From contig DATEGN010000024.1 of assembly GCA_035280125.1 (NCBI GenBank), positions 1 to 26,480 of the forward strand: a stretch of DNA of 26,480 nt, in the 5' to 3' direction. The notes beneath the pieces are model-generated. The model was not told the DNA's origin and did no database searches. It saw nothing but the letters and a program-made list of their open reading frames with translations. Each line of letters opens with the position of its first letter. Positions within the stretch are counted from its first letter, which is position 1. Source of the DNA: Gemmatimonadaceae bacterium. GTDB taxonomy: Bacteria > Gemmatimonadota > Gemmatimonadetes > Gemmatimonadales > Gemmatimonadaceae. Position numbers and translations under genes: made by a program. Shown here piece after piece: positions 13,525 to 22,888 of the stretch.

Positions 13525-13540
13525 GAGCGACGTGTCGCTC
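13525..13540. promoter_or_regulatory. Palindrome GAGCGAC-GT-GTCGCTC in the divergent intergenic region
   Basis: Perfect 7-2-7 inverted repeat between the SPFH gene and the basic-protein gene. Confidence 0.35.
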
Positions 13541-13666
13541 AGTCGGCTGACAAATCGGAAAGGTTGTCCAGGTGTGACATTCGTGAGCTTCAGCGCCTTA
13601 CGGATGTGCCTGATTCTTGCTATCGTCGAAATGGTTTTTCTATCAACGACTCCGAGGAGAGCCTCT

Positions 13667-14047
13667 ATGGCGACCAGGGCCAGGAAGTCGCGCGGGAAGT
13701 CTGGCAGGACCGCTTCAACACGAAGCGGTAGCAAGAAGAAATCGAAGAGCACGAAGTCTCGCGGTCGGTCCGCAGCCGCAGCAAGTGCCGCGAGCAACGC
13801 GCGGAGTGCATCCACGGCACGTCCGGCTGCCTCGGCGAAAAGAGGTGCCTCGAGCGCGAAGCGCAGTGCAGCGACGACGTCTTCTCGTAAGGCAGCGACG
13901 CGCAAGTCGTCGAAGGTGCCGGCGCCAATTGCGCGTGTCACACGAGTGGCGCAAGAGGTAGCGAAGGAGGCCGGGTCTGCGGTGGTCGCCGGAATGGAAG
14001 CGATCAAGGACCTGGGCAGCAGCGTCGTAGAGCGCGTGACCGGCTGA
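13667..14047 (+). CDS. Highly basic Lys/Arg/Ser/Ala-rich protein (histone H1-like), 126 aa
   Basis: GAGGAG before ATG 13667 and a terminator after the stop. The first 83 aa contain 25 K/R and no D/E. Confidence 0.75.
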   Translation: MATRARKSRGKSGRTASTRSGSKKKSKSTKSRGRSAAAASAASNARSASTARPAASAKRGASSAKRSAATTSSRKAATRKSSKVPAPIARVTRVAQEVAKEAGSAVVAGMEAIKDLGSSVVERVTG

Positions 14048-14066: not shown

Positions 14067-14097
14067 CGAGGGGCGCCTTCAGGGCGCCCTTCGTTTT
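14067..14097 (+). terminator. Intrinsic terminator between convergent genes
   Basis: CGAGGGGCGCC / GGCGCCCTTCG stem (11 bp, one G-U), 5-nt loop, then TTTT. Confidence 0.75.
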
Positions 14098-15028
14098 ACT
14101 GTGCTCTAATCATGCTCGTCGCTCGCGACGCTGGAGTGCAGTGCCCATCAAGCCAGTCGGCGACGAGCTCGAACACGTGGTCTCGTCCGTAGTCGACGGT
14201 GATCACGTGGCCAGCTCCAGTCACCCACACAAGCTTCTTGTCCGCGGCGCCAATGTGATCGAACGCCCGCTGCGCCGCATCGGGTGGAATCCGGTTGTCT
14301 TCCCGCGACTGGATCATCAAGGTCGGGGATTTTATTCGCGGGAGCGCACGAGTGGCTCGAGCGACCGTCGTGCGCAACGCGCGCAACGCGGCCGGAGTGA
14401 AGATGCCGTACGCCAGGCTGCGAGCGGCCTCGTTCTCGTCGCGAATGGACCGCCGAGCTGCCGGATCGAGAGCGCGAACGTATGGCACCGCGAAGGCCCA
14501 CAAAGGTGCGAGGCGAGCGGCTAAAGCGATCCTCGCCGGCATGGCGAGATACGGGGCGAGTAACACGGCGGCTGGAATGGAGTGCTCTTCCGCAAGCAGC
14601 TGCGCCGCGAGTGCGCCGCCCATCGAGAGCCCTGCTATCGATACCCACGTATGCTCGCCACTGAGCTCTCGATAGGCGTCGCGTATCGTTTCCATCCACT
14701 GACCGGCGCGAACATTAGAGAATGCGCGTGGCGTTCGTCCGTGACCGGGCAGCAATGGAGCACGCACGTGATAACCGCGGGCCCACAAGTAATCAGCGAT
14801 GTAGCGAAGCGTCTGGGGCGTGTCGCCACCGCCGTGAATCAGCAGCACTGCTGGTGCGTCTGCGCCGCGTGCGAGCTCGAAATCCCGCGCGCCAACAATG
14901 ATTCCCTCGGTATCAAGCGGCAGTCGCTTGAGTGTATCGCGACCCAACCTCAACGCGGCACGCCGCGTCAGTGCGGCGACGGTCACAAGCACTGCAATCG
15001 CGAAGGTCGAGAGGAGCAAAGCCAGCAT
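14096..15028 (-). CDS. Alpha/beta-hydrolase carboxylesterase with N-terminal membrane anchor
   Basis: LLIHGGG, RAPLLPGHG, nucleophile GLSMGG, Asp in SREDNRI, His in GAGHVI. Confidence 0.92.
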   Translation of the reverse strand: MLALLLSTFAIAVLVTVAALTRRAALRLGRDTLKRLPLDTEGIIVGARDFELARGADAPAVLLIHGGGDTPQTLRYIADYLWARGYHVRAPLLPGHGRTPRAFSNVRAGQWMETIRDAYRELSGEHTWVSIAGLSMGGALAAQLLAEEHSIPAAVLLAPYLAMPARIALAARLAPLWAFAVPYVRALDPAARRSIRDENEAARSLAYGIFTPAALRALRTTVARATRALPRIKSPTLMIQSREDNRIPPDAAQRAFDHIGAADKKLVWVTGAGHVITVDYGRDHVFELVADWLDGHCTPASRATSMIRAQ

Positions 15029-15107
15029 CTTGCGAACGGGCGCCGAGTGGATGACGTGCGCAGGACGAACTCCGTGCGCTCGAAGACACCGCGCGAATTA
15101 TAGACGT

Positions 15108-15142
15108 GAAACAAAACGGGGCGAGGACTTGCGTCCTCGCCC
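15108..15142 (-). terminator. Intrinsic terminator after the Crp/Fnr gene
   Basis: Perfect 10-bp stem GGGCGAGGAC / GTCCTCGCCC (15119-15142), followed on the - strand by GTTTTGTTTC. Confidence 0.85.
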
Positions 15143-15167
15143 TGAGTGACCCCGCTGACGAGATGAT

Positions 15168-15899
15168 CTATTGGAAGGTTTGCTCGGCGCGGTCTCCGAA
15201 GGTTGCGATGAGCAACTCGCTATCGGAGGTCACGTCGACACGCTCTGCCAGTTGCGTGGGCGGCGCGATGATGAGCGTGCTTCCTTTGCGCTCGACGAGC
15301 CCTTCGCCGGTGAGGCGACTCAGAACGAGCGATACGGACTCTCGCGTCGCCCCGACGAGCTCACACAACAGACGATAACGCGCAGTGCACAGCACGATCT
15401 TGCCGTCTTCACGGGTGAACGTCGCGTTATTCGCCATGCGCAGCAGCGTCGACACCATGCGCTGCTCGACACTCAACGTCGTGAGCTCACGAAGCTTGTC
15501 GAGGAGCGCCGCGCGCTCTGCCATCAATTGCGACACGAGTCCCAGTGCGTGTTGCGGCTGCTCACGCACGAACGCTCGAAAGCGCGTTGCGCTCAGGAAG
15601 AGCGTTTCGCTCTCGTCGTCGGCGCGCGCGTCCGTAGCGTACTTCGCGTTCGGAGCTAAACCCTCGGACCCGAAGGACTCACCGGGCGTCGCGATCCATG
15701 GCACGAAGCCGCGGCCCGCACGCACACGACTGCGCAGCACGACGCGCCCTCGGGTGACGACGAATACGCCGTCTGCGGCAGTGCCGCGCTGATAGATTGC
15801 GAAGCCTGCCGGCCATGATGCCCGCGCGGCGTAACCACCGAGTGCCTCGCGTTCCTGCGTAGACAATCGCGCAGGCCCCCCCGTCAACGTCTCACCCAC
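15168..15899 (-). CDS. Crp/Fnr family transcriptional regulator
   Basis: cNMP-binding barrel (IYQRGTAADGVFVVTRGRV...PGESFG), C-helix, SVEQRM, and HTH LCELVGATRESVSLVLSRLTGEGLV. GTG 15899 has GAGGG upstream. Confidence 0.9.
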   Translation of the reverse strand: MGETLTGGPARLSTQEREALGGYAARASWPAGFAIYQRGTAADGVFVVTRGRVVLRSRVRAGRGFVPWIATPGESFGSEGLAPNAKYATDARADDESETLFLSATRFRAFVREQPQHALGLVSQLMAERAALLDKLRELTTLSVEQRMVSTLLRMANNATFTREDGKIVLCTARYRLLCELVGATRESVSLVLSRLTGEGLVERKGSTLIIAPPTQLAERVDVTSDSELLIATFGDRAEQTFQ

Positions 15900-15925
15900 G
15901 ACCACCCTCGCTTCCGGCCGACGGT

Positions 15926-15940
15926 ATTGCAGGTTGCAAT
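15926..15940. promoter_or_regulatory. Inverted repeat ATTGCA-GGT-TGCAAT (candidate operator)
   Basis: Perfect 6-3-6 inverted repeat in the divergent region. TTGACA follows at 15954-15959, but no good -10 is seen. Confidence 0.35.
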
Positions 15941-16082
15941 GTCTGGGCCGCTCTTGACAGGCTGACGTTTCCATCCTGTTTTTGCAGGGTGCGCATACCC
16001 CGCGCATGAGGCCGCACCGACATCGACAATGAAGTCGATGTCCGTCGATTGCGTGTTGCGCGCCGGGAGGATCTCGAAGCTC

Positions 16083-17687
16083 ATGACGTTCGGCGCGCCC
16101 GAGAGCGGAACATCGGACAACGTGCGCATCCCGTCGATTGTCATACTCGGCGCAGATGCGCTTCTTGCGGCGCGTCCGGCAACGCCAATCCAACTCGCGC
16201 ATGCGTGCATGCAGGTTGGCTATCACACCGTCGTGCCGGCGAGTTGGGGAGACGAGCTCATCGCCGCAGCTTCGCTCCGTGCCTTACGACATCACGGACA
16301 TCTTCCCGCAATTCAATGCAGTTGTCCGCACGTTGCCGACCGATTGCTTTCCGCCGGCACAGACCTGCGACCGTTTCTTCTTTCGCTGGTTTCTCCACCA
16401 GTCGCACTCGCGCGTTATTTGAGGGCAGTGCATTCACCTCAGAAGTTGCACATCACGTACGTTGGCCAATGTCCGGGCGCGAAAGACGAATCCATTGACG
16501 CGCGACTCACGCCGGACGATCTGCTCGGAATCTTTGCCGACCATCACGTTGCGATCGAGCAGCAGCCCGACTACTTCGATTCGGTCATTCCTCCAGATCG
16601 TCGTCGTTATCGGTCGCAGCCCGGCGGGCTGCCGATAGCGGAGATGCTCTGGTCGGCCGATGGTAACGGAAGCGTCGCGGCACGATCGCTGGTCGAGATC
16701 TTCGGTGACGAGCTGCCGGTCGAGTTGGCGCAGCATCTTCTCGCGGGAAAACCGGCACTCATCGATGTTGCTCCCGCGTTAGGCTGCGTCTGCAGTGGTG
16801 CCGCCGACAACGTCGATCCGCTGCGCGCGCGCGCGCGCATTAGCGAGCTCGAGCCGCCACGCGCCAGCCATCCGATTCTCGACGAGACCATTGTCGCCGA
16901 AACGGCAGTGTCGGTGCCCGTTGCTGCGCGCAGCGCGATCGACCTGGTTTCCGCGTCAACCGCCCCGGTGGGCGTCGTGGCGGAGCTCAGCGCGCCTAAC
17001 GCGCCAGCTCCATTCGGTGACGAGGAGAGCGCGGGAATTCCAACCCTTTCGCGACGTGAGATCGAATCGGTTCTTTCGGACCATCCCATGCATGGCAGCC
17101 GTCGATACTCGCCGGCACGGGGTGTCGCGCGACTGAGCAGCGTTGGGCTACCGACGGCTCGCGCTGCGGATGGCCGCCAGTTGCCGCGCACCTACGTTGC
17201 GCGCCGACGATCACCAACGCGTCTCAACCGGACGACTCCGCCTGACGCGGCAGCTCCGATTGCATCGACCGCGGAGCTGCCGCGCGCAACCGACGCGTCA
17301 TCACTGGCTGCGCAACACGAGCCGGCGCGATCGGCGGCGCCGACGGTCGATTCACCGGCGACGAACATGGCCGAACCAGTCGCGCCGATCGCCTCGCCCA
17401 TCGAGATGCCACCGACGAGTGTCACGGAGCCCCCCGCGGCGCGCCGGTCAGCGCCGGTGCGGCACGTCGATGAGGAACGCGACAATAATTCCAGATTCGC
17501 CGAGCGAACGGTGGCACTGCCGGTCACACGTCAATCGGACGGACGCCCGCGCGAGGAGATCCTGCCGAAGCAAGCAGGAGACCGGCCTGTTATGCAATTG
17601 CTAACGCTCGGTCTCCTGATCTCCATGATCGTGCTCGTCAGCGTGACGGTCGGCGTTCTTGTTGGCCGTTGGATGACGCAGCGCTGA
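16083..17687 (+). CDS. [FeFe]-hydrogenase large-subunit C-terminal/Nar1-fold domain protein with Pro/Ala-rich linker and C-terminal TM anchor
   Basis: Motifs IQCSCPHV, SPPVALARYL, YVGQCPGAKDE, IDARLT and LGCVCSG occur in the order and spacing of H-domain motifs L1-L3. A low-complexity linker and the hydrophobic C-terminus LLTLGLLISMIVLVSVTVGVLVG follow. GGAGG before ATG 16083; an alternative ATG is at 16029. Confidence 0.7.
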   Translation: MTFGAPESGTSDNVRIPSIVILGADALLAARPATPIQLAHACMQVGYHTVVPASWGDELIAAASLRALRHHGHLPAIQCSCPHVADRLLSAGTDLRPFLLSLVSPPVALARYLRAVHSPQKLHITYVGQCPGAKDESIDARLTPDDLLGIFADHHVAIEQQPDYFDSVIPPDRRRYRSQPGGLPIAEMLWSADGNGSVAARSLVEIFGDELPVELAQHLLAGKPALIDVAPALGCVCSGAADNVDPLRARARISELEPPRASHPILDETIVAETAVSVPVAARSAIDLVSASTAPVGVVAELSAPNAPAPFGDEESAGIPTLSRREIESVLSDHPMHGSRRYSPARGVARLSSVGLPTARAADGRQLPRTYVARRRSPTRLNRTTPPDAAAPIASTAELPRATDASSLAAQHEPARSAAPTVDSPATNMAEPVAPIASPIEMPPTSVTEPPAARRSAPVRHVDEERDNNSRFAERTVALPVTRQSDGRPREEILPKQAGDRPVMQLLTLGLLISMIVLVSVTVGVLVGRWMTQR

Positions 17688-19788
17688 TCGCTCGCCGCGC
17701 CTCGGCGAGCGCGCGTGTCGCCTCATCGAAGCGCGCGGCGAGATCGGCGATTTCGCGCTTTGCGAGCGCCCGGTCACCACGTCGGATCGCCTCGTTCACA
17801 GTTGGAAGAGCCATGTTCGCGTAGCCGTTGTCCTCGTCCGCGACGTAGATGATGTTGCGAAACCAAGGTCGGCTACGCAGTCCCTCCGGCCGCGTCAGTG
17901 CGCGCTCCACTCGCATCAGCGCGCGATTGGTCTCCTCCAGCGCGTCCTTTCCCGCTGTCCCAGCGGCCAAGGCTGCATTGCGGGCGCTCGAGAAGCCGAC
18001 GGCCATCTCCTCCATGTGATCGATCGCTGCACGAAGAGGCTCGGTCGGTGACGTGTCGTCCCATTTTCGCTCGGAAAATGCACGATCGATCCTGGTGAGA
18101 TAATTCCGCATGGTACGCGCGAACTCGACGTAGTCGTAAGGCAGTACGTCGGCGTTGGCGACGCGCAGGACCATTCCAGCGGCGATGCGCGCTGCGGTCG
18201 CATGGTAGAGGAAGCCGGGATCGCCGAATTTCGACATCCAGTTGATGTCGTCGTACTGCGAGTGGTATACGCCGCCTGCGCCTCCAAAACCCCATTCGGC
18301 AATTGGAATTCCCAGGTGATTGTAGAACGGAGCGAAATCTGATCCTCCACCGGGATCGCCCATCGCCGGTTCGAGCGAATCTGCGACCGCAGCGGCTCGT
18401 CTCCACTCCGAGTACACGTCGCCATGACCATTCGGATCGGGTACTTCGCTCGCCACCGAGCGGATTGTCGGACGGAGCGAAGGCGAGCCGCCGCCATTGA
18501 AGCGCGGTCCCTGCGCGGCGACGTCCTGGTTGAAGTAGGCAACGGCGTTCTTCGTTAGGCGCAGCGAGTCGTCCTCGACGTATTCAACGGAGCCGATCAA
18601 GCCCCATTCTTCGGCGTCCCACGTCGCAAAGACAATCGTCCGCTTTGGTCGCATGCCGTTCTTCAATTGTTCTGCGACCGCACGTGCGGCCTCGAGGACA
18701 CTCACCGTTCCGCTCACGTTGTCAGCGGTGCCTGGGCCCCATGCGTCTCGATGCCCCCCGACGATTACCAGCTCCTCCGGAAATTCACTGCCACGGATGA
18801 TGCCGAAGGTATCGTAGATCGGCTTCAGTGCGTGCGCCGCGCGATCGTCGCGTACGACGACTCGTGCTCTCACCGGCCCGGGACCGACGTGATAGCGGAA
18901 CGGGAGGCCACCCTGCCAGGACTGCGGCACGTTGACTCCACGCACGTTTCTCAGCAGTTCGGCCGCGTTGCCGTAGCTCATCGGGACGACAGGAATGCGC
19001 GGAATGTCCATCTTGCTCTCGGGGAGCCGCGGCGCGTTTCGATTGCTCGGGTACGACGGAGTAGATGGATCGCCATCGCTGTTCAAGACACTGCCGCGCT
19101 GGACTCCGCCGGAGGGACGCATCGGTCCTTCAGGATAGACATCGCCGCGCACGAAGCCGTCGTCCTGTGGATCGCTGTAGATGATCAATGCCGCGGCGCC
19201 GTGGCGCTCGGCTTCGCGTGCCTTGATGCCGCGGAACGATCGGCCGTATCGGGCGACGGCGATCTTTCCCTTGACCGAGACGCCGAGCGAGTCGAGCTGC
19301 GCGTAATCCTCGATCAGGCCGTAATTGACGTACACCACCTCGCCCGTGACATCGCCCTGGCCGCTATAGCCGTTCACAGTGAGGTACTGCGCCTGTGAAG
19401 ATGCTGGGTCGTTCGGTACCGCTGGCTCGGCGAGATTGAGGCGAAGCGTGTCGGGAGCTACACGCCACACGCGTACGTCCGTCGCGTGAGGCATCCAGAT
19501 ATCGTAGCTGCGAACCTCGGTCTCGAGCCCCCATGCTTTCATCTGTGAAATCACATAGTCGCGGGTACGCGCCTGCGCAGCCGTGCCGGCCACGTGCACC
19601 TCGCGCGAGAGCGCACGTGAGTGTGCGGCCGCGTTCGTTGGGCTGGGTCGCTGGATAGCATCGGACTCTATTTCGCGCTCTCGGGCAGCCGTGGCCGGCG
19701 CATAGCCGACCAGGTTTTGTTGCGCTCCGAGAACAGACGACGAGATGGCCAGGGCGGCCGCAAGTAGAATCTGTGAGAGTTTGCTCAT
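17638..19788 (-). CDS. M28 family peptidase, glutamate carboxypeptidase II-like (PA domain and TfR-dimerisation domain), secreted
   Basis: Signal peptide, PA domain (YVNYGLIEDY, VKGKIAVARYG), Zn ligands GGHRDAW, ADNVSG, DAEEWG, NQDV and YHSQYD. Confidence 0.95.
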   Translation of the reverse strand: MSKLSQILLAAALAISSSVLGAQQNLVGYAPATAAREREIESDAIQRPSPTNAAAHSRALSREVHVAGTAAQARTRDYVISQMKAWGLETEVRSYDIWMPHATDVRVWRVAPDTLRLNLAEPAVPNDPASSQAQYLTVNGYSGQGDVTGEVVYVNYGLIEDYAQLDSLGVSVKGKIAVARYGRSFRGIKAREAERHGAAALIIYSDPQDDGFVRGDVYPEGPMRPSGGVQRGSVLNSDGDPSTPSYPSNRNAPRLPESKMDIPRIPVVPMSYGNAAELLRNVRGVNVPQSWQGGLPFRYHVGPGPVRARVVVRDDRAAHALKPIYDTFGIIRGSEFPEELVIVGGHRDAWGPGTADNVSGTVSVLEAARAVAEQLKNGMRPKRTIVFATWDAEEWGLIGSVEYVEDDSLRLTKNAVAYFNQDVAAQGPRFNGGGSPSLRPTIRSVASEVPDPNGHGDVYSEWRRAAAVADSLEPAMGDPGGGSDFAPFYNHLGIPIAEWGFGGAGGVYHSQYDDINWMSKFGDPGFLYHATAARIAAGMVLRVANADVLPYDYVEFARTMRNYLTRIDRAFSERKWDDTSPTEPLRAAIDHMEEMAVGFSSARNAALAAGTAGKDALEETNRALMRVERALTRPEGLRSRPWFRNIIYVADEDNGYANMALPTVNEAIRRGDRALAKREIADLAARFDEATRALAEARRAISAASSNGQQERRPSR

Positions 19789-21280: not shown

Positions 21281-22888
21281 TCATCGCAAGGCGCGTGTCA
21301 AAACATGACCGTCGAGCCGTTCGAGCGGCGGTACGCCGACGACTCTCGCGAGCGTCGGCGCGATATCGACGACGCGCGCGAACTCGTCATAGTGTCCGGG
21401 TCGAATGGCGCTCCCCCAGAAGAGGAGTGGCACGTGCGCATCCTCGTCGTTAGGCGTTCCGTGCGTGGCGATCGTCGTTCCGGCCCAATAGGCGAATGGC
21501 TCGAGGCTGATCACCAGTTCCACCGGGAGCTCGGGTGACAGCATGTGCAGCCAGCGCCGGGCAACCGCATCGCGCACCGTGTCGGCCTCAGCGAGTGTCC
21601 GCACGAATTCCACGCGTCCGATGCCCGGCACCTTGCGCGCGCGCTCCGCGAATTCTCGCAAGACCGAGTCCGCATCGACGTGCGCCTTCGCAAACGCGGC
21701 CCGATCGATCGTTACCATGCCCTCGGAGACCGTGAAGTCCGACGTGTCGAGGCCACGCTTCATGAGCTGTGTCATCGTCTCGTCGTAGAGCGGGTCGAGG
21801 TTTGCATAACGAGCGACGGCGCCCTTCGTGTGAGCCGCGTGAAGCGCCGGGAAGGGCTGAATCCCATGATCCGCCGTGAGCGCGACGACGATGCGTGTCG
21901 AGTCACGAAGCTTGAAGAGCGAATCGAAAAAGACGCCGAGATACCGATCGAGCCGAAGAATCTGGTCGTGAATCTCGCGAGAATCCGGACCGAATGCGTG
22001 TCCGACGGCGTCTGTTGTCGACAACGAGATCGCCAGGAGATCCGTCTGCGGCCCGCGTCCCAGCTTCAGTGCCTCCACGCCGGCGAGCGCGGCTTGGAGA
22101 GTGACCTCATCCATCATTGGATAGGCGGGCAGAGAACGCGCAGCAGCCTCGGAATCGGTGGGGAATGGATGAGGAAATACAACACCACGACCCTGGTTCT
22201 CGAGCGGGACGCTGTCCGGCTCTGGATACGCGCTTTCCGGGAGCAGAAGCGTCCAACGCTGACCCGCAAAGCGCTGCGGAAGTCGCCGCGCGTTAAAACG
22301 CTCGATCCATGACGGCATCGTATCGTGGTAGTAACTGCTCGTCGTGAAGTGGTCCGGCGCGTACCAGAACACCTGCTCGTGGGCACGGCCAAGCGGTAAG
22401 ATGGCGCCACGGTCCTTCCGCGAGATCGAGAGCGCGCGCGAGCGTTGATCCGCGACGCGCAGCCAGTCGATCAGTGTCGTTCCACGAAACCGAAACGGCG
22501 ACGCTCCCGGACCGCCGCCGCCGAGCAGTGGTGCGCGATCGTCCTGCACGCCCGCGCTGTTGGTCGTTATCCCGGTGCTTCGCGGGAAGCGACCCGAGAG
22601 AGTCGCCGAATGGCCGGGTGCCGTCTCGGTGATCGCGTGATCCTGATAAGCATTCTCGAACGCTGCGCCGGAACGATAGAGCCGTGCCAGACCGCCGGTG
22701 AGCTGCTTGTCGAACCGTGGCAGATAGTCGGAGCGCATCTGGTCGATCGTGAGGAACACGACCAGCAACGGCCTCGAGTTGGGTTGTTGCGCACAGGCGG
22801 TACTCGCCATGAGCATCGCGAACAGTGCTATCCACACGCTTCTCGTCAGCAAATGCCTAACACTCGACTCGCGCCTCACGAGCGGCAT
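21281..22888 (-). CDS. Alkaline phosphatase superfamily protein (PafA/PhoK type)
   Basis: TIDQMR, Thr nucleophile TETAPGHS, KDRGAI, TTDAVGH, LTADHG and THG. Signal peptide present. Exact start uncertain. Confidence 0.92.
   Translation of the reverse strand: MPLVRRESSVRHLLTRSVWIALFAMLMASTACAQQPNSRPLLVVFLTIDQMRSDYLPRFDKQLTGGLARLYRSGAAFENAYQDHAITETAPGHSATLSGRFPRSTGITTNSAGVQDDRAPLLGGGGPGASPFRFRGTTLIDWLRVADQRSRALSISRKDRGAILPLGRAHEQVFWYAPDHFTTSSYYHDTMPSWIERFNARRLPQRFAGQRWTLLLPESAYPEPDSVPLENQGRGVVFPHPFPTDSEAAARSLPAYPMMDEVTLQAALAGVEALKLGRGPQTDLLAISLSTTDAVGHAFGPDSREIHDQILRLDRYLGVFFDSLFKLRDSTRIVVALTADHGIQPFPALHAAHTKGAVARYANLDPLYDETMTQLMKRGLDTSDFTVSEGMVTIDRAAFAKAHVDADSVLREFAERARKVPGIGRVEFVRTLAEADTVRDAVARRWLHMLSPELPVELVISLEPFAYWAGTTIATHGTPNDEDAHVPLLFWGSAIRPGHYDEFARVVDIAPTLARVVGVPPLERLDGHVLTRALR

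Follow-up and report, generated by a model that had tools for sequence, protein, structure and literature searches.

Introduction

FNR senses O2 through its own Cys-ligated [4Fe-4S] cluster, whereas Cys-less members of the Crp/Fnr family such as FixK use a separate sensor. The activity of FixK is set mainly by the amount of protein that this sensor system allows. Here we analyse a divergent gene pair from a soil Gemmatimonadaceae genome, in a window of 26,480 nucleotides that is the whole stretch of DNA analysed (assembly GCA_035280125.1, contig DATEGN010000024.1, positions 1 to 26,480) and whose DNA is found in rhizosphere and soil metagenomes. One gene, crp (15168..15899, minus strand), encodes a Crp/Fnr-family regulator of 243 residues, and the other, called here the hyd-fold gene (16083..17687, plus strand), encodes a membrane-anchored hydrogenase-fold protein of 534 residues. 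Similar to FixK, which acts with FixLJ in rhizobia, the regulator combines a cyclic nucleotide monophosphate (cNMP)-like domain with a Crp-type helix-turn-helix (HTH), and has neither the FNR Cys cluster nor the cyclic AMP (cAMP) contacts. It differs from FixK in its predicted input, a sigma-54 promoter with an enhancer-binding protein, in place of FixJ at a sigma-70 promoter; no FixK box was found, though no search aimed at one was made. An earlier note on this DNA had proposed that the neighbour is the sensor or membrane-sequestering partner of the regulator, or else just its target. The evidence presented below favours, on balance, two separately maintained modules at a shared inherited position in Gemmatimonadaceae, and no dedicated sensor-regulator pair.

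The hyd-fold protein also has described counterparts. Nar1/NARFL-type proteins have an H-domain-like fold and bind a [4Fe-4S] cluster without the 2Fe subcluster; the Cys residues of the window protein likewise lie at or beside H-cluster ligand positions. Unlike Nar1/NARFL, the window protein is bacterial and membrane-tethered, and lacks an N-terminal ferredoxin-like Cys motif. With its homologues, it resembles membrane anti-sigma factors in the succession of a cytoplasmic N-domain, a linker and a single membrane helix, sometimes followed by an outer tail. The putative sensory [FeFe] hydrogenases of HydS groups C and D (PMC13104023) similarly use the H-domain fold outside catalysis. The window protein differs from HydS in having no Fer4, C-terminal cluster domain, PAS or GGDEF, and in carrying a disordered linker and a membrane helix.

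Distribution and synteny of the two genes

The divergent arrangement of crp and the hyd-fold gene is not due to chance, as it recurs in all 26 fetched loci holding both genes, from 24 genera. The two genes are nevertheless often found without each other. Among 301 genomes of Gemmatimonadaceae, 109 carry both genes, 66 the hyd-fold gene only, 48 crp only, and 78 neither (totals of 175 for the hyd-fold gene and 157 for crp; naive odds ratio 2.7, uncorrected for relatedness). At the genus level the counts are 32, 19, 12 and 14, respectively (Fisher p=0.22). Five genomes flagged as unpublished (G417, G176, G371, G156, G257) are included in these tallies, and no locus was taken from them; without them the genome counts become 107/66/45/78, and 31 genera hold both genes, since genus g109 is represented by G176 alone. 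Genera with a single gene are well sampled, and the completeness of their genomes is mostly high: only the hyd-fold gene is present in g90, g92 and g4 (7-8 genomes each), and only crp in g5, g96 and g11. In g18 and g12, some genomes keep the hyd-fold gene without crp. The co-occurrence and co-loss expected of a dedicated two-gene system were thus not seen across the 301 genomes, and the independent distributions that the earlier note had named as evidence against its proposal are largely what was found.

In a sample of 151 genomes from the whole phylum, crp orthologues, called at E<1e-20, occur in 13 genomes, only within the family of the window, and the hyd-fold family occurs in 84. Absences in this sample held at much looser thresholds (1e-5 and 1e-20).

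Both genes sit inside a conserved block, with the order phosphodiesterase, 208-aa gene, M28 peptidase, [hyd-fold gene], [crp], ThiF-rhodanese or GHMP kinase, and alpha/beta-hydrolase. In the crp-only genomes G077, G036, G047, G074 and G072, the M28 gene abuts crp. Where crp is missing, the hyd-fold gene stands directly beside the gene for the hydrolase (G114, G029), ThiF (G140) or the GHMP kinase (G104). Since either gene can be missing from an otherwise kept block, each is an independent presence/absence polymorphism at one inherited position. The linkage that the earlier note had suggested examining is thus present in every locus with both genes, and is explained by the conserved block, in which each gene behaves as an insertion or deletion; the adjacency of crp and the hyd-fold gene adds no information beyond background synteny.

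The Crp-like regulator

The crp product matches cNMP_binding (PF00027, E=1.2e-10) and HTH_Crp_2 (PF13545, E=5.5e-9), both above the gathering score. These matches place it in the Crp/Fnr transcription factor family, with a predicted N-terminal cNMP-binding-like β-roll and C-terminal Crp-type HTH, as in Escherichia coli FNR and CRP. Among solved structures, CRP gives the best match (E about 1e-12), and the R-E of the CRP sequence RETVGR is retained in the recognition helix GATRESVSLVLSRL (15312-15353, minus strand). In the alignment with E. coli CRP, G71-E72 is replaced by G-S within FGSEGL (15657-15674, minus strand), and R82-S83 by Y-A within YATDA (15627-15641, minus strand), as the earlier note had placed them. 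The cAMP contacts E72, R82 and S83 of CRP therefore read S, Y and A in the regulator. The pocket motif TFGxEGL...YxTDA is kept among the orthologues, which argues that the domain is under constraint, though not for cAMP or an FNR-type cluster.

The Cys cluster of the FNR subgroup, three N-terminal Cys and one β-roll Cys, is absent from the regulator. Its only two Cys (VLCTA and LLCEL) both lie beside the HTH, in agreement with the earlier note, and neither is invariant among 13 orthologues. The curated NCBIfam equivalog models CRP, FtrB, FixK and NtcA all score far under their cut-offs on the regulator (55.9 bits against 266 for CRP and 23 bits against 300 for FixK), which represents an unclassified subfamily and is a new member of the Crp/Fnr family. 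Without the CRP contacts and without conserved cluster Cys, the regulator probably needs an outside input, and the suggestion that it seems unable to sense cAMP or O2 alone is supported to this extent.

The shared intergenic region

The minus-strand open reading frame (ORF) of crp spans 15168-16226. The short form starting at GTG 15899 was chosen, as similarity to orthologues begins at about residue 12 of this form and a GAGG box precedes the codon; Pfam, the CRP alignment and the orthologue alignment were used for this gene. GTG 15905 is an alternative start, and GGAAGCGAGG lies upstream of GTG 15899 or 15905. On the other side, the start of the hyd-fold gene at ATG 16083 is supported because the majority of homologues open with MTFGAPE or MTLA. 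Within the genus, CATGACGTTCGG and the upstream GGAGG (Shine-Dalgarno box and ATG context) are kept, and the sequence farther upstream is not. These two starts give an intergenic gap of 183 bp, and bear out the head-to-head layout described previously.

The canonical sigma-54 promoter reads TGGCAC-N5-TTGC, with GG at -24 and GC at -12, and a spacing of 10 nt. A single element of the intergenic region is strongly conserved. Read on the crp strand it is CGGCCC-N5-(a)TTGC(r), and it fits this consensus in its spacing and in the invariant GG and GC. In the window it reads CGGCCCAGACATTGCA (15935..15950, minus strand), with the GG at 15949-15948 and the GC at 15937-15936 (GG-N10-GC). The predicted crp transcription start is at about 15924, 19-25 nt before the start codon. 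The element is found 25-100 nt upstream of crp in 25 of the 26 loci that have the hyd-fold gene and 12 of the 18 that lack it (37/44 in total), and is absent from six hyd-only loci, which have no crp. Since it is present with or without the hyd-fold gene and absent without crp, the element is a feature of crp. RpoN (217.9 bits) is encoded in the genome together with at least 13 sigma-54 activators, and none of the activators found sits on this contig. From these sequence features we infer that the conserved element is a sigma-54-type promoter for crp, in which case the upstream sensor would probably be an enhancer-binding protein encoded elsewhere.

A genome scan for the two half-sites located 14 of 37 N5 sites in intergenic DNA, against 69 of 352 at N3, N4, N6 and N7, a larger intergenic share at the rarer spacing, as fits sigma-54 promoters; the gene caller used was crude, and the crp site itself was counted as coding owing to the long ORF. 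Several intergenic N5 sites read CGGCAC...TTGC, as the crp site does, the form CGGCAC/CGGCCC being common to them. YGGMMC with TTGC occurs 37 times at N5, against 84-96 times at N3, N4, N6 or N7 (genome G000), and coding sequence appears to avoid sigma-54-like sites. CGGCACCGxxxTTGCG, the sequence of several intergenic sites, is a possible local consensus. A regulon search for the motif upstream of crp gave one exact site and five sites with one mismatch in the genome, and no clear regulon. Parts of crp (X13, X19) and of the hyd-fold gene (X18) are covered by metatranscriptome contigs of the same sequence as the window, which carry neither strand nor ends nor proof of transcription; their breaks at 15932-15962 are assembly-graph artefacts of the conserved 30-mer.

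Other readings of the motif were considered. A CRP-like TGTCC-N6-GGACA palindrome, perfect in one locus, was rejected because TGTC and GACA lie 8 to 12 nt apart, depending on the locus. The end of a small ORF (108 aa, 15884-16210) was set aside, the motif being explained by the GG-N10-GC match and its tracking of crp.

A -35-like hexamer, TTGACA (15954..15959, plus strand), points towards the hyd-fold gene and is separated by 3 nt from the GG at -24 in the crp promoter. The sequence cT(T/G)GACA occupies a fixed position in nearly all hyd-fold loci, 2-3 nt from the -24 element, and is unconserved in crp-only loci; CTGGACA is also found upstream of the hyd-fold gene in two of six hyd-only loci. 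The hexamer and the -24 element would constitute unusually tight and conserved, back-to-back overlapping promoters. Assignment of TTGACA as the -35 of the hyd-fold promoter is tentative, because a scan for consensus sigma-70 promoters over 15000-17800 revealed no canonical -10 for this gene. That scan gave no promoter at all, and only the terminator after crp turned up.

An inverted repeat, ACCGACATCGAC-N6-GTCGATGTCCGT (16016..16045), lies in the 5' leader of the hyd-fold gene. Counted from the predicted crp start it spans about -92 to -121, a distance at which sigma-54 enhancers usually sit. Its 12-nt arms are separated by a spacer of 5-6 nt, and are preserved by compensatory A-T to G-C changes across eight congeneric genomes, with a variable loop; it is unconserved outside the genus. 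It could be an RNA hairpin or a candidate enhancer (upstream activating sequence) for the sigma-54 promoter.

The hydrogenase-fold membrane protein

The H-like domain of the hyd-fold protein is N-terminal (16083-16892), and the protein matches PF02906 with E=8e-7, over part of the profile. An AlphaFold2 model of residues 1-300, built with 34 homologues, has a predicted local distance difference test score (pLDDT) of 82.6 and a predicted template-modelling score (pTM) of 0.82. A Foldseek search with this model retrieved the H-domains of HydA1 and CpI (E about 4e-9, probability 1.00, query TM-score about 0.55). As modelled, the protein thus has a true [FeFe]-hydrogenase H-domain fold, and the hydrogenase or Fe-S-type fold ascribed to it earlier holds. 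Only the fold search succeeded: a PDB sequence search with the H-like domain gave no match below E=1, and sequence similarity to Nar1/NARFL is marginal.

In the homologue alignment five Cys are invariant, namely C79 and C81 in CSCP (16317-16328), C130 in GxCPGA (QCPGA, 16467-16481) and C235 and C237 in GCxCSG (GCVCSG, 16782-16799), and C42 is nearly so. Profile alignment to a Thermotoga hydrogenase places C81 at the TSCCP Cys that ligates the cluster and C235 at the second of the two Cys in MACxxGC, with a Pro at the position of the first L3 Cys. Intact L1 (TSCCPxW), L2 (MPCxxKxxE) and L3 (ExMACxxGCxxGGGQP) motifs are absent; in a rewiring that sets the protein apart from HydS, they read CSCP, GxCPGAxD and GCxCSG. 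HydF, one of the HydE/F/G maturases of the 2Fe subcluster, was not found in the genome, in an assembly that is 81% complete (best hit 71.8 bits against a cut-off of 325), and the hydrogenase model TIGR04105 scores 21 bits on the protein against a cut-off of 450. The H-like domain is probably non-catalytic, and would bind a [4Fe-4S] cluster on the five invariant Cys without a 2Fe subcluster. The protein is a new variant of the non-catalytic H-domain proteins.

Residues of about 263-505 form a linker rich in Ala, Pro, Arg and Ser, followed by a C-terminal hydrophobic helix at residues 503-528 (17589-17666, plus strand), located by composition. Some homologues extend 130-200 residues past the helix, which argues for a single-pass topology with the N-terminus inside. 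The linker is disordered and unconserved except for the short motif LPRTYVARRR (17181-17210), which reads LPRAYVARRR in other homologues and is kept as (L/I/V)PRA(Y/F)(V/A)ARR in homologues of many genera, including lineages without crp. The motif is likely a docking site for some partner. Both the linker motif and the invariant Cys are equally kept in lineages without crp.

Relatives of the hyd-fold protein

Members of the hyd-fold family differ in domain composition. In the family of the window, the hyd-fold gene of all 12 loci lacks Fer4, PF04060 and GGDEF. In a sister family, all 18 fetched loci encode Fer4, an H-like domain, the PF04060 'FeS' domain and GGDEF in one protein, without the H-site Cys. 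HydS resembles these relatives in its N-terminal Fer4 clusters, H-like domain and C-terminal PF04060 cluster. Putative sensory HydS enzymes have this accessory-cluster layout with a PAS output (PMC13104023), which GGDEF replaces in the sister-family proteins. The locus looks like an operon for a diguanylate cyclase that senses redox state in a HydS-like way; no reports on hydrogenase-like GGDEF proteins turned up in literature searches. The GGDEF-bearing relatives, which are the nearest to the hyd-fold protein within the phylum, indicate that the H-like module is used in signalling proteins in the phylum, and a sensor-type ancestry of the hyd-fold module is plausible from the domain comparison. 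These signalling relatives give the idea of a sensor some background, yet say nothing about Crp.

In the sister family, a gene for a sigma-54 activator precedes, and a gene for a 240-aa protein without a Pfam match follows, the gene of this type. Examples with two Fer4, an H-like domain that has lost the H-site Cys, PF04060 and GGDEF are L043:4379-8509 (genome G125), L044, L050 and L013-L030, and such genes occur in the sister family and in other classes of the phylum. The activator gene precedes in L043 and L044, and the conserved protein of about 240 aa, which bears a DPWGxRR motif, follows in L043, L044 and L050. At L053:7411-8064, in a genome (G084) that carries a pair of hyd-fold paralogues but lacks crp, one of the paralogues comes immediately after a same-strand Thioredoxin_9 gene; elsewhere ThiF-rhodanese genes flank the hyd-fold locus. 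These neighbours hint at a thiol or sulfur-redox context.

Proposed mechanism and alternatives

In keeping with two separately maintained modules, crp would be transcribed from its conserved sigma-54-type promoter, and an unlinked enhancer-binding protein would most likely sense the real signal and set the amount, and so the activity, of the regulator. This would be a cascade of the FixLJ-FixK kind, in which the role of separate sensor falls most likely to the unlinked activator and not to the neighbour. The hyd-fold protein would hold a cytoplasm-facing H-domain-like module on a long disordered linker, attached to the membrane by one C-terminal helix, and act with a partner of its own; the module may descend from, or be sister to, the HydS-like sensors with GGDEF output of neighbouring families. 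The sole coupling suggested between the two genes is in cis. The -35-like hexamer would fall within the footprint of the sigma-54 holoenzyme, and the enhancer would necessarily lie in the hyd-fold leader, so that the two transcription complexes would compete. Judging from this geometry, expression of crp and of the hyd-fold gene may be reciprocal, and such tight, conserved back-to-back promoters could make two neighbours mutually exclusive.

Several points speak against separately maintained modules. The two genes, when both present, are always adjacent and divergent, with a nearly fixed spacing of the promoter elements in 24 genera, which could reflect a functional constraint, and their genome-level association is positive when relatedness is ignored. 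The sigma-54 assignment comes from consensus match and conservation, the metatranscriptome contigs having no usable ends. The palindrome search described below is blind to a Crp site that is asymmetric or degenerate, and the completeness of the assembly is 81%.

One alternative is a regulator and its target, in which the Crp-like protein, bound in the 183-bp region, would activate or repress transcription of the hyd-fold gene and perhaps of its own gene, the two proteins never touching. Divergent regulator-neighbour pairs are often of this kind, the layout is kept in 24 genera, the R-E of the recognition helix makes a CRP-like site conceivable, and the hyd-fold leader contains the genus-specific inverted repeat. 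Yet no conserved Crp-type palindrome (5-N(2-8)-5) was found in the 24 shared regions, where no half-site recurs in more than seven, the level of shuffled controls, and the sigma-54 element and the -35-like hexamer explain the conserved blocks. As crp is also found without the hyd-fold gene in 12 genera and the hyd-fold gene without crp in 19, we consider a target relationship, the second suggestion of the earlier note, unlikely. Nor do we see much chance, though it deserves slightly less credit still, that CGGCCC-N5-TTGC serves a different factor as its operator, or belongs to a non-canonical sigma-70 or extracytoplasmic function (ECF) promoter, in which case the cascade would fail. The -24 hexamer is indeed CGGCCC and not TGGCAC, no mapped transcription start came from the metatranscriptome contigs, and the promoters of Gemmatimonadota are little known, so that the empty sigma-70 scan may reflect an unusual promoter logic. 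These points are set against the exact GG-N10-GC spacing with TTGC, the orientation towards crp at 25-100 nt from the start codon in 37 loci, rpoN and many activators in the genome, and other intergenic sites that share the C-GG-C-A/C-C ... TTGC form and the spacing preference.

In a split switch, the membrane-anchored Fe-S domain would respond to O2 or redox state and hold the Crp-like regulator by binding or sequestration, the two proteins working as one sensor-regulator system; oxygen sensing of this kind would be new for a Crp/Fnr regulator. Such a switch would fit a regulator without sensing residues of its own, next to a protein with an Fe-S-type fold, invariant Cys, a membrane tether and GGDEF-output sensors among its relatives, the two genes being adjacent in all fetched loci with both; membrane sequestration of regulators is also a known principle, as for Mlc-PtsG and anti-sigma factors. 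Unlike in those systems, the expected co-occurrence with the Crp-like gene is not seen: 66 genomes are hyd-only and 48 crp-only, whole genera of 7-8 genomes have one partner, and crp has been lost within g18 and g12 while the hyd-fold gene stays. Even in the absence of crp, the hyd-fold protein keeps its conserved surface features and its linker motif, and crp would receive its own signal through the sigma-54 promoter. We therefore regard the split switch as very improbable, the independent distributions, the block synteny and crp's own sigma-54-type promoter leaving the neighbour unsupported as sensor or sequestering partner. A weaker version, in which the hyd-fold protein of lineages with both genes captures the regulator facultatively and reversibly, depending on redox state or O2, with reciprocal synthesis through the back-to-back sigma-54 and sigma-70-like promoters, layered on the sigma-54 cascade, and single-gene lineages have lost this accessory layer, has equally scant prospects.

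The evidence against a dedicated pair saves effort on the split-switch hypothesis. For the separately maintained modules that we favour, a Gemmatimonadaceae-confined Crp/Fnr subfamily that is apparently sigma-54-driven offers a testable route to the real sensor. The H-domain-like module, repeatedly wired to signalling and membrane contexts in the phylum, matters for the study of non-catalytic hydrogenase relatives in aerobic soil bacteria.

Flanking genes

An intrinsic-terminator-like hairpin lies just past the crp stop (15119..15142, minus strand; 10 pairs, 8 of them G-C, followed by a T-run), which suggests that crp is monocistronic here. This strong hairpin separates crp from its constant neighbour, the alpha/beta-hydrolase gene of the conserved block (14096..15028, minus strand), and the two are probably not one operon here. 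The M28/PA/TFR-dimer peptidase gene (17638..19788, minus strand) is convergent with the hyd-fold gene, and the phosphodiesterase/sulfatase-like gene of the block is located at 21281-22888. An Rfam scan of the whole window gave no match. A basic ORF of 171 aa, rich in Ala, Ser, Lys and Arg and without a Pfam match, lies between the SPFH and hydrolase genes (13532-14047, plus strand). It overlaps an alternative minus-strand ORF, and whether it is a real gene is uncertain; its C-terminal residues, about 40 of them, are kept in two related genomes.

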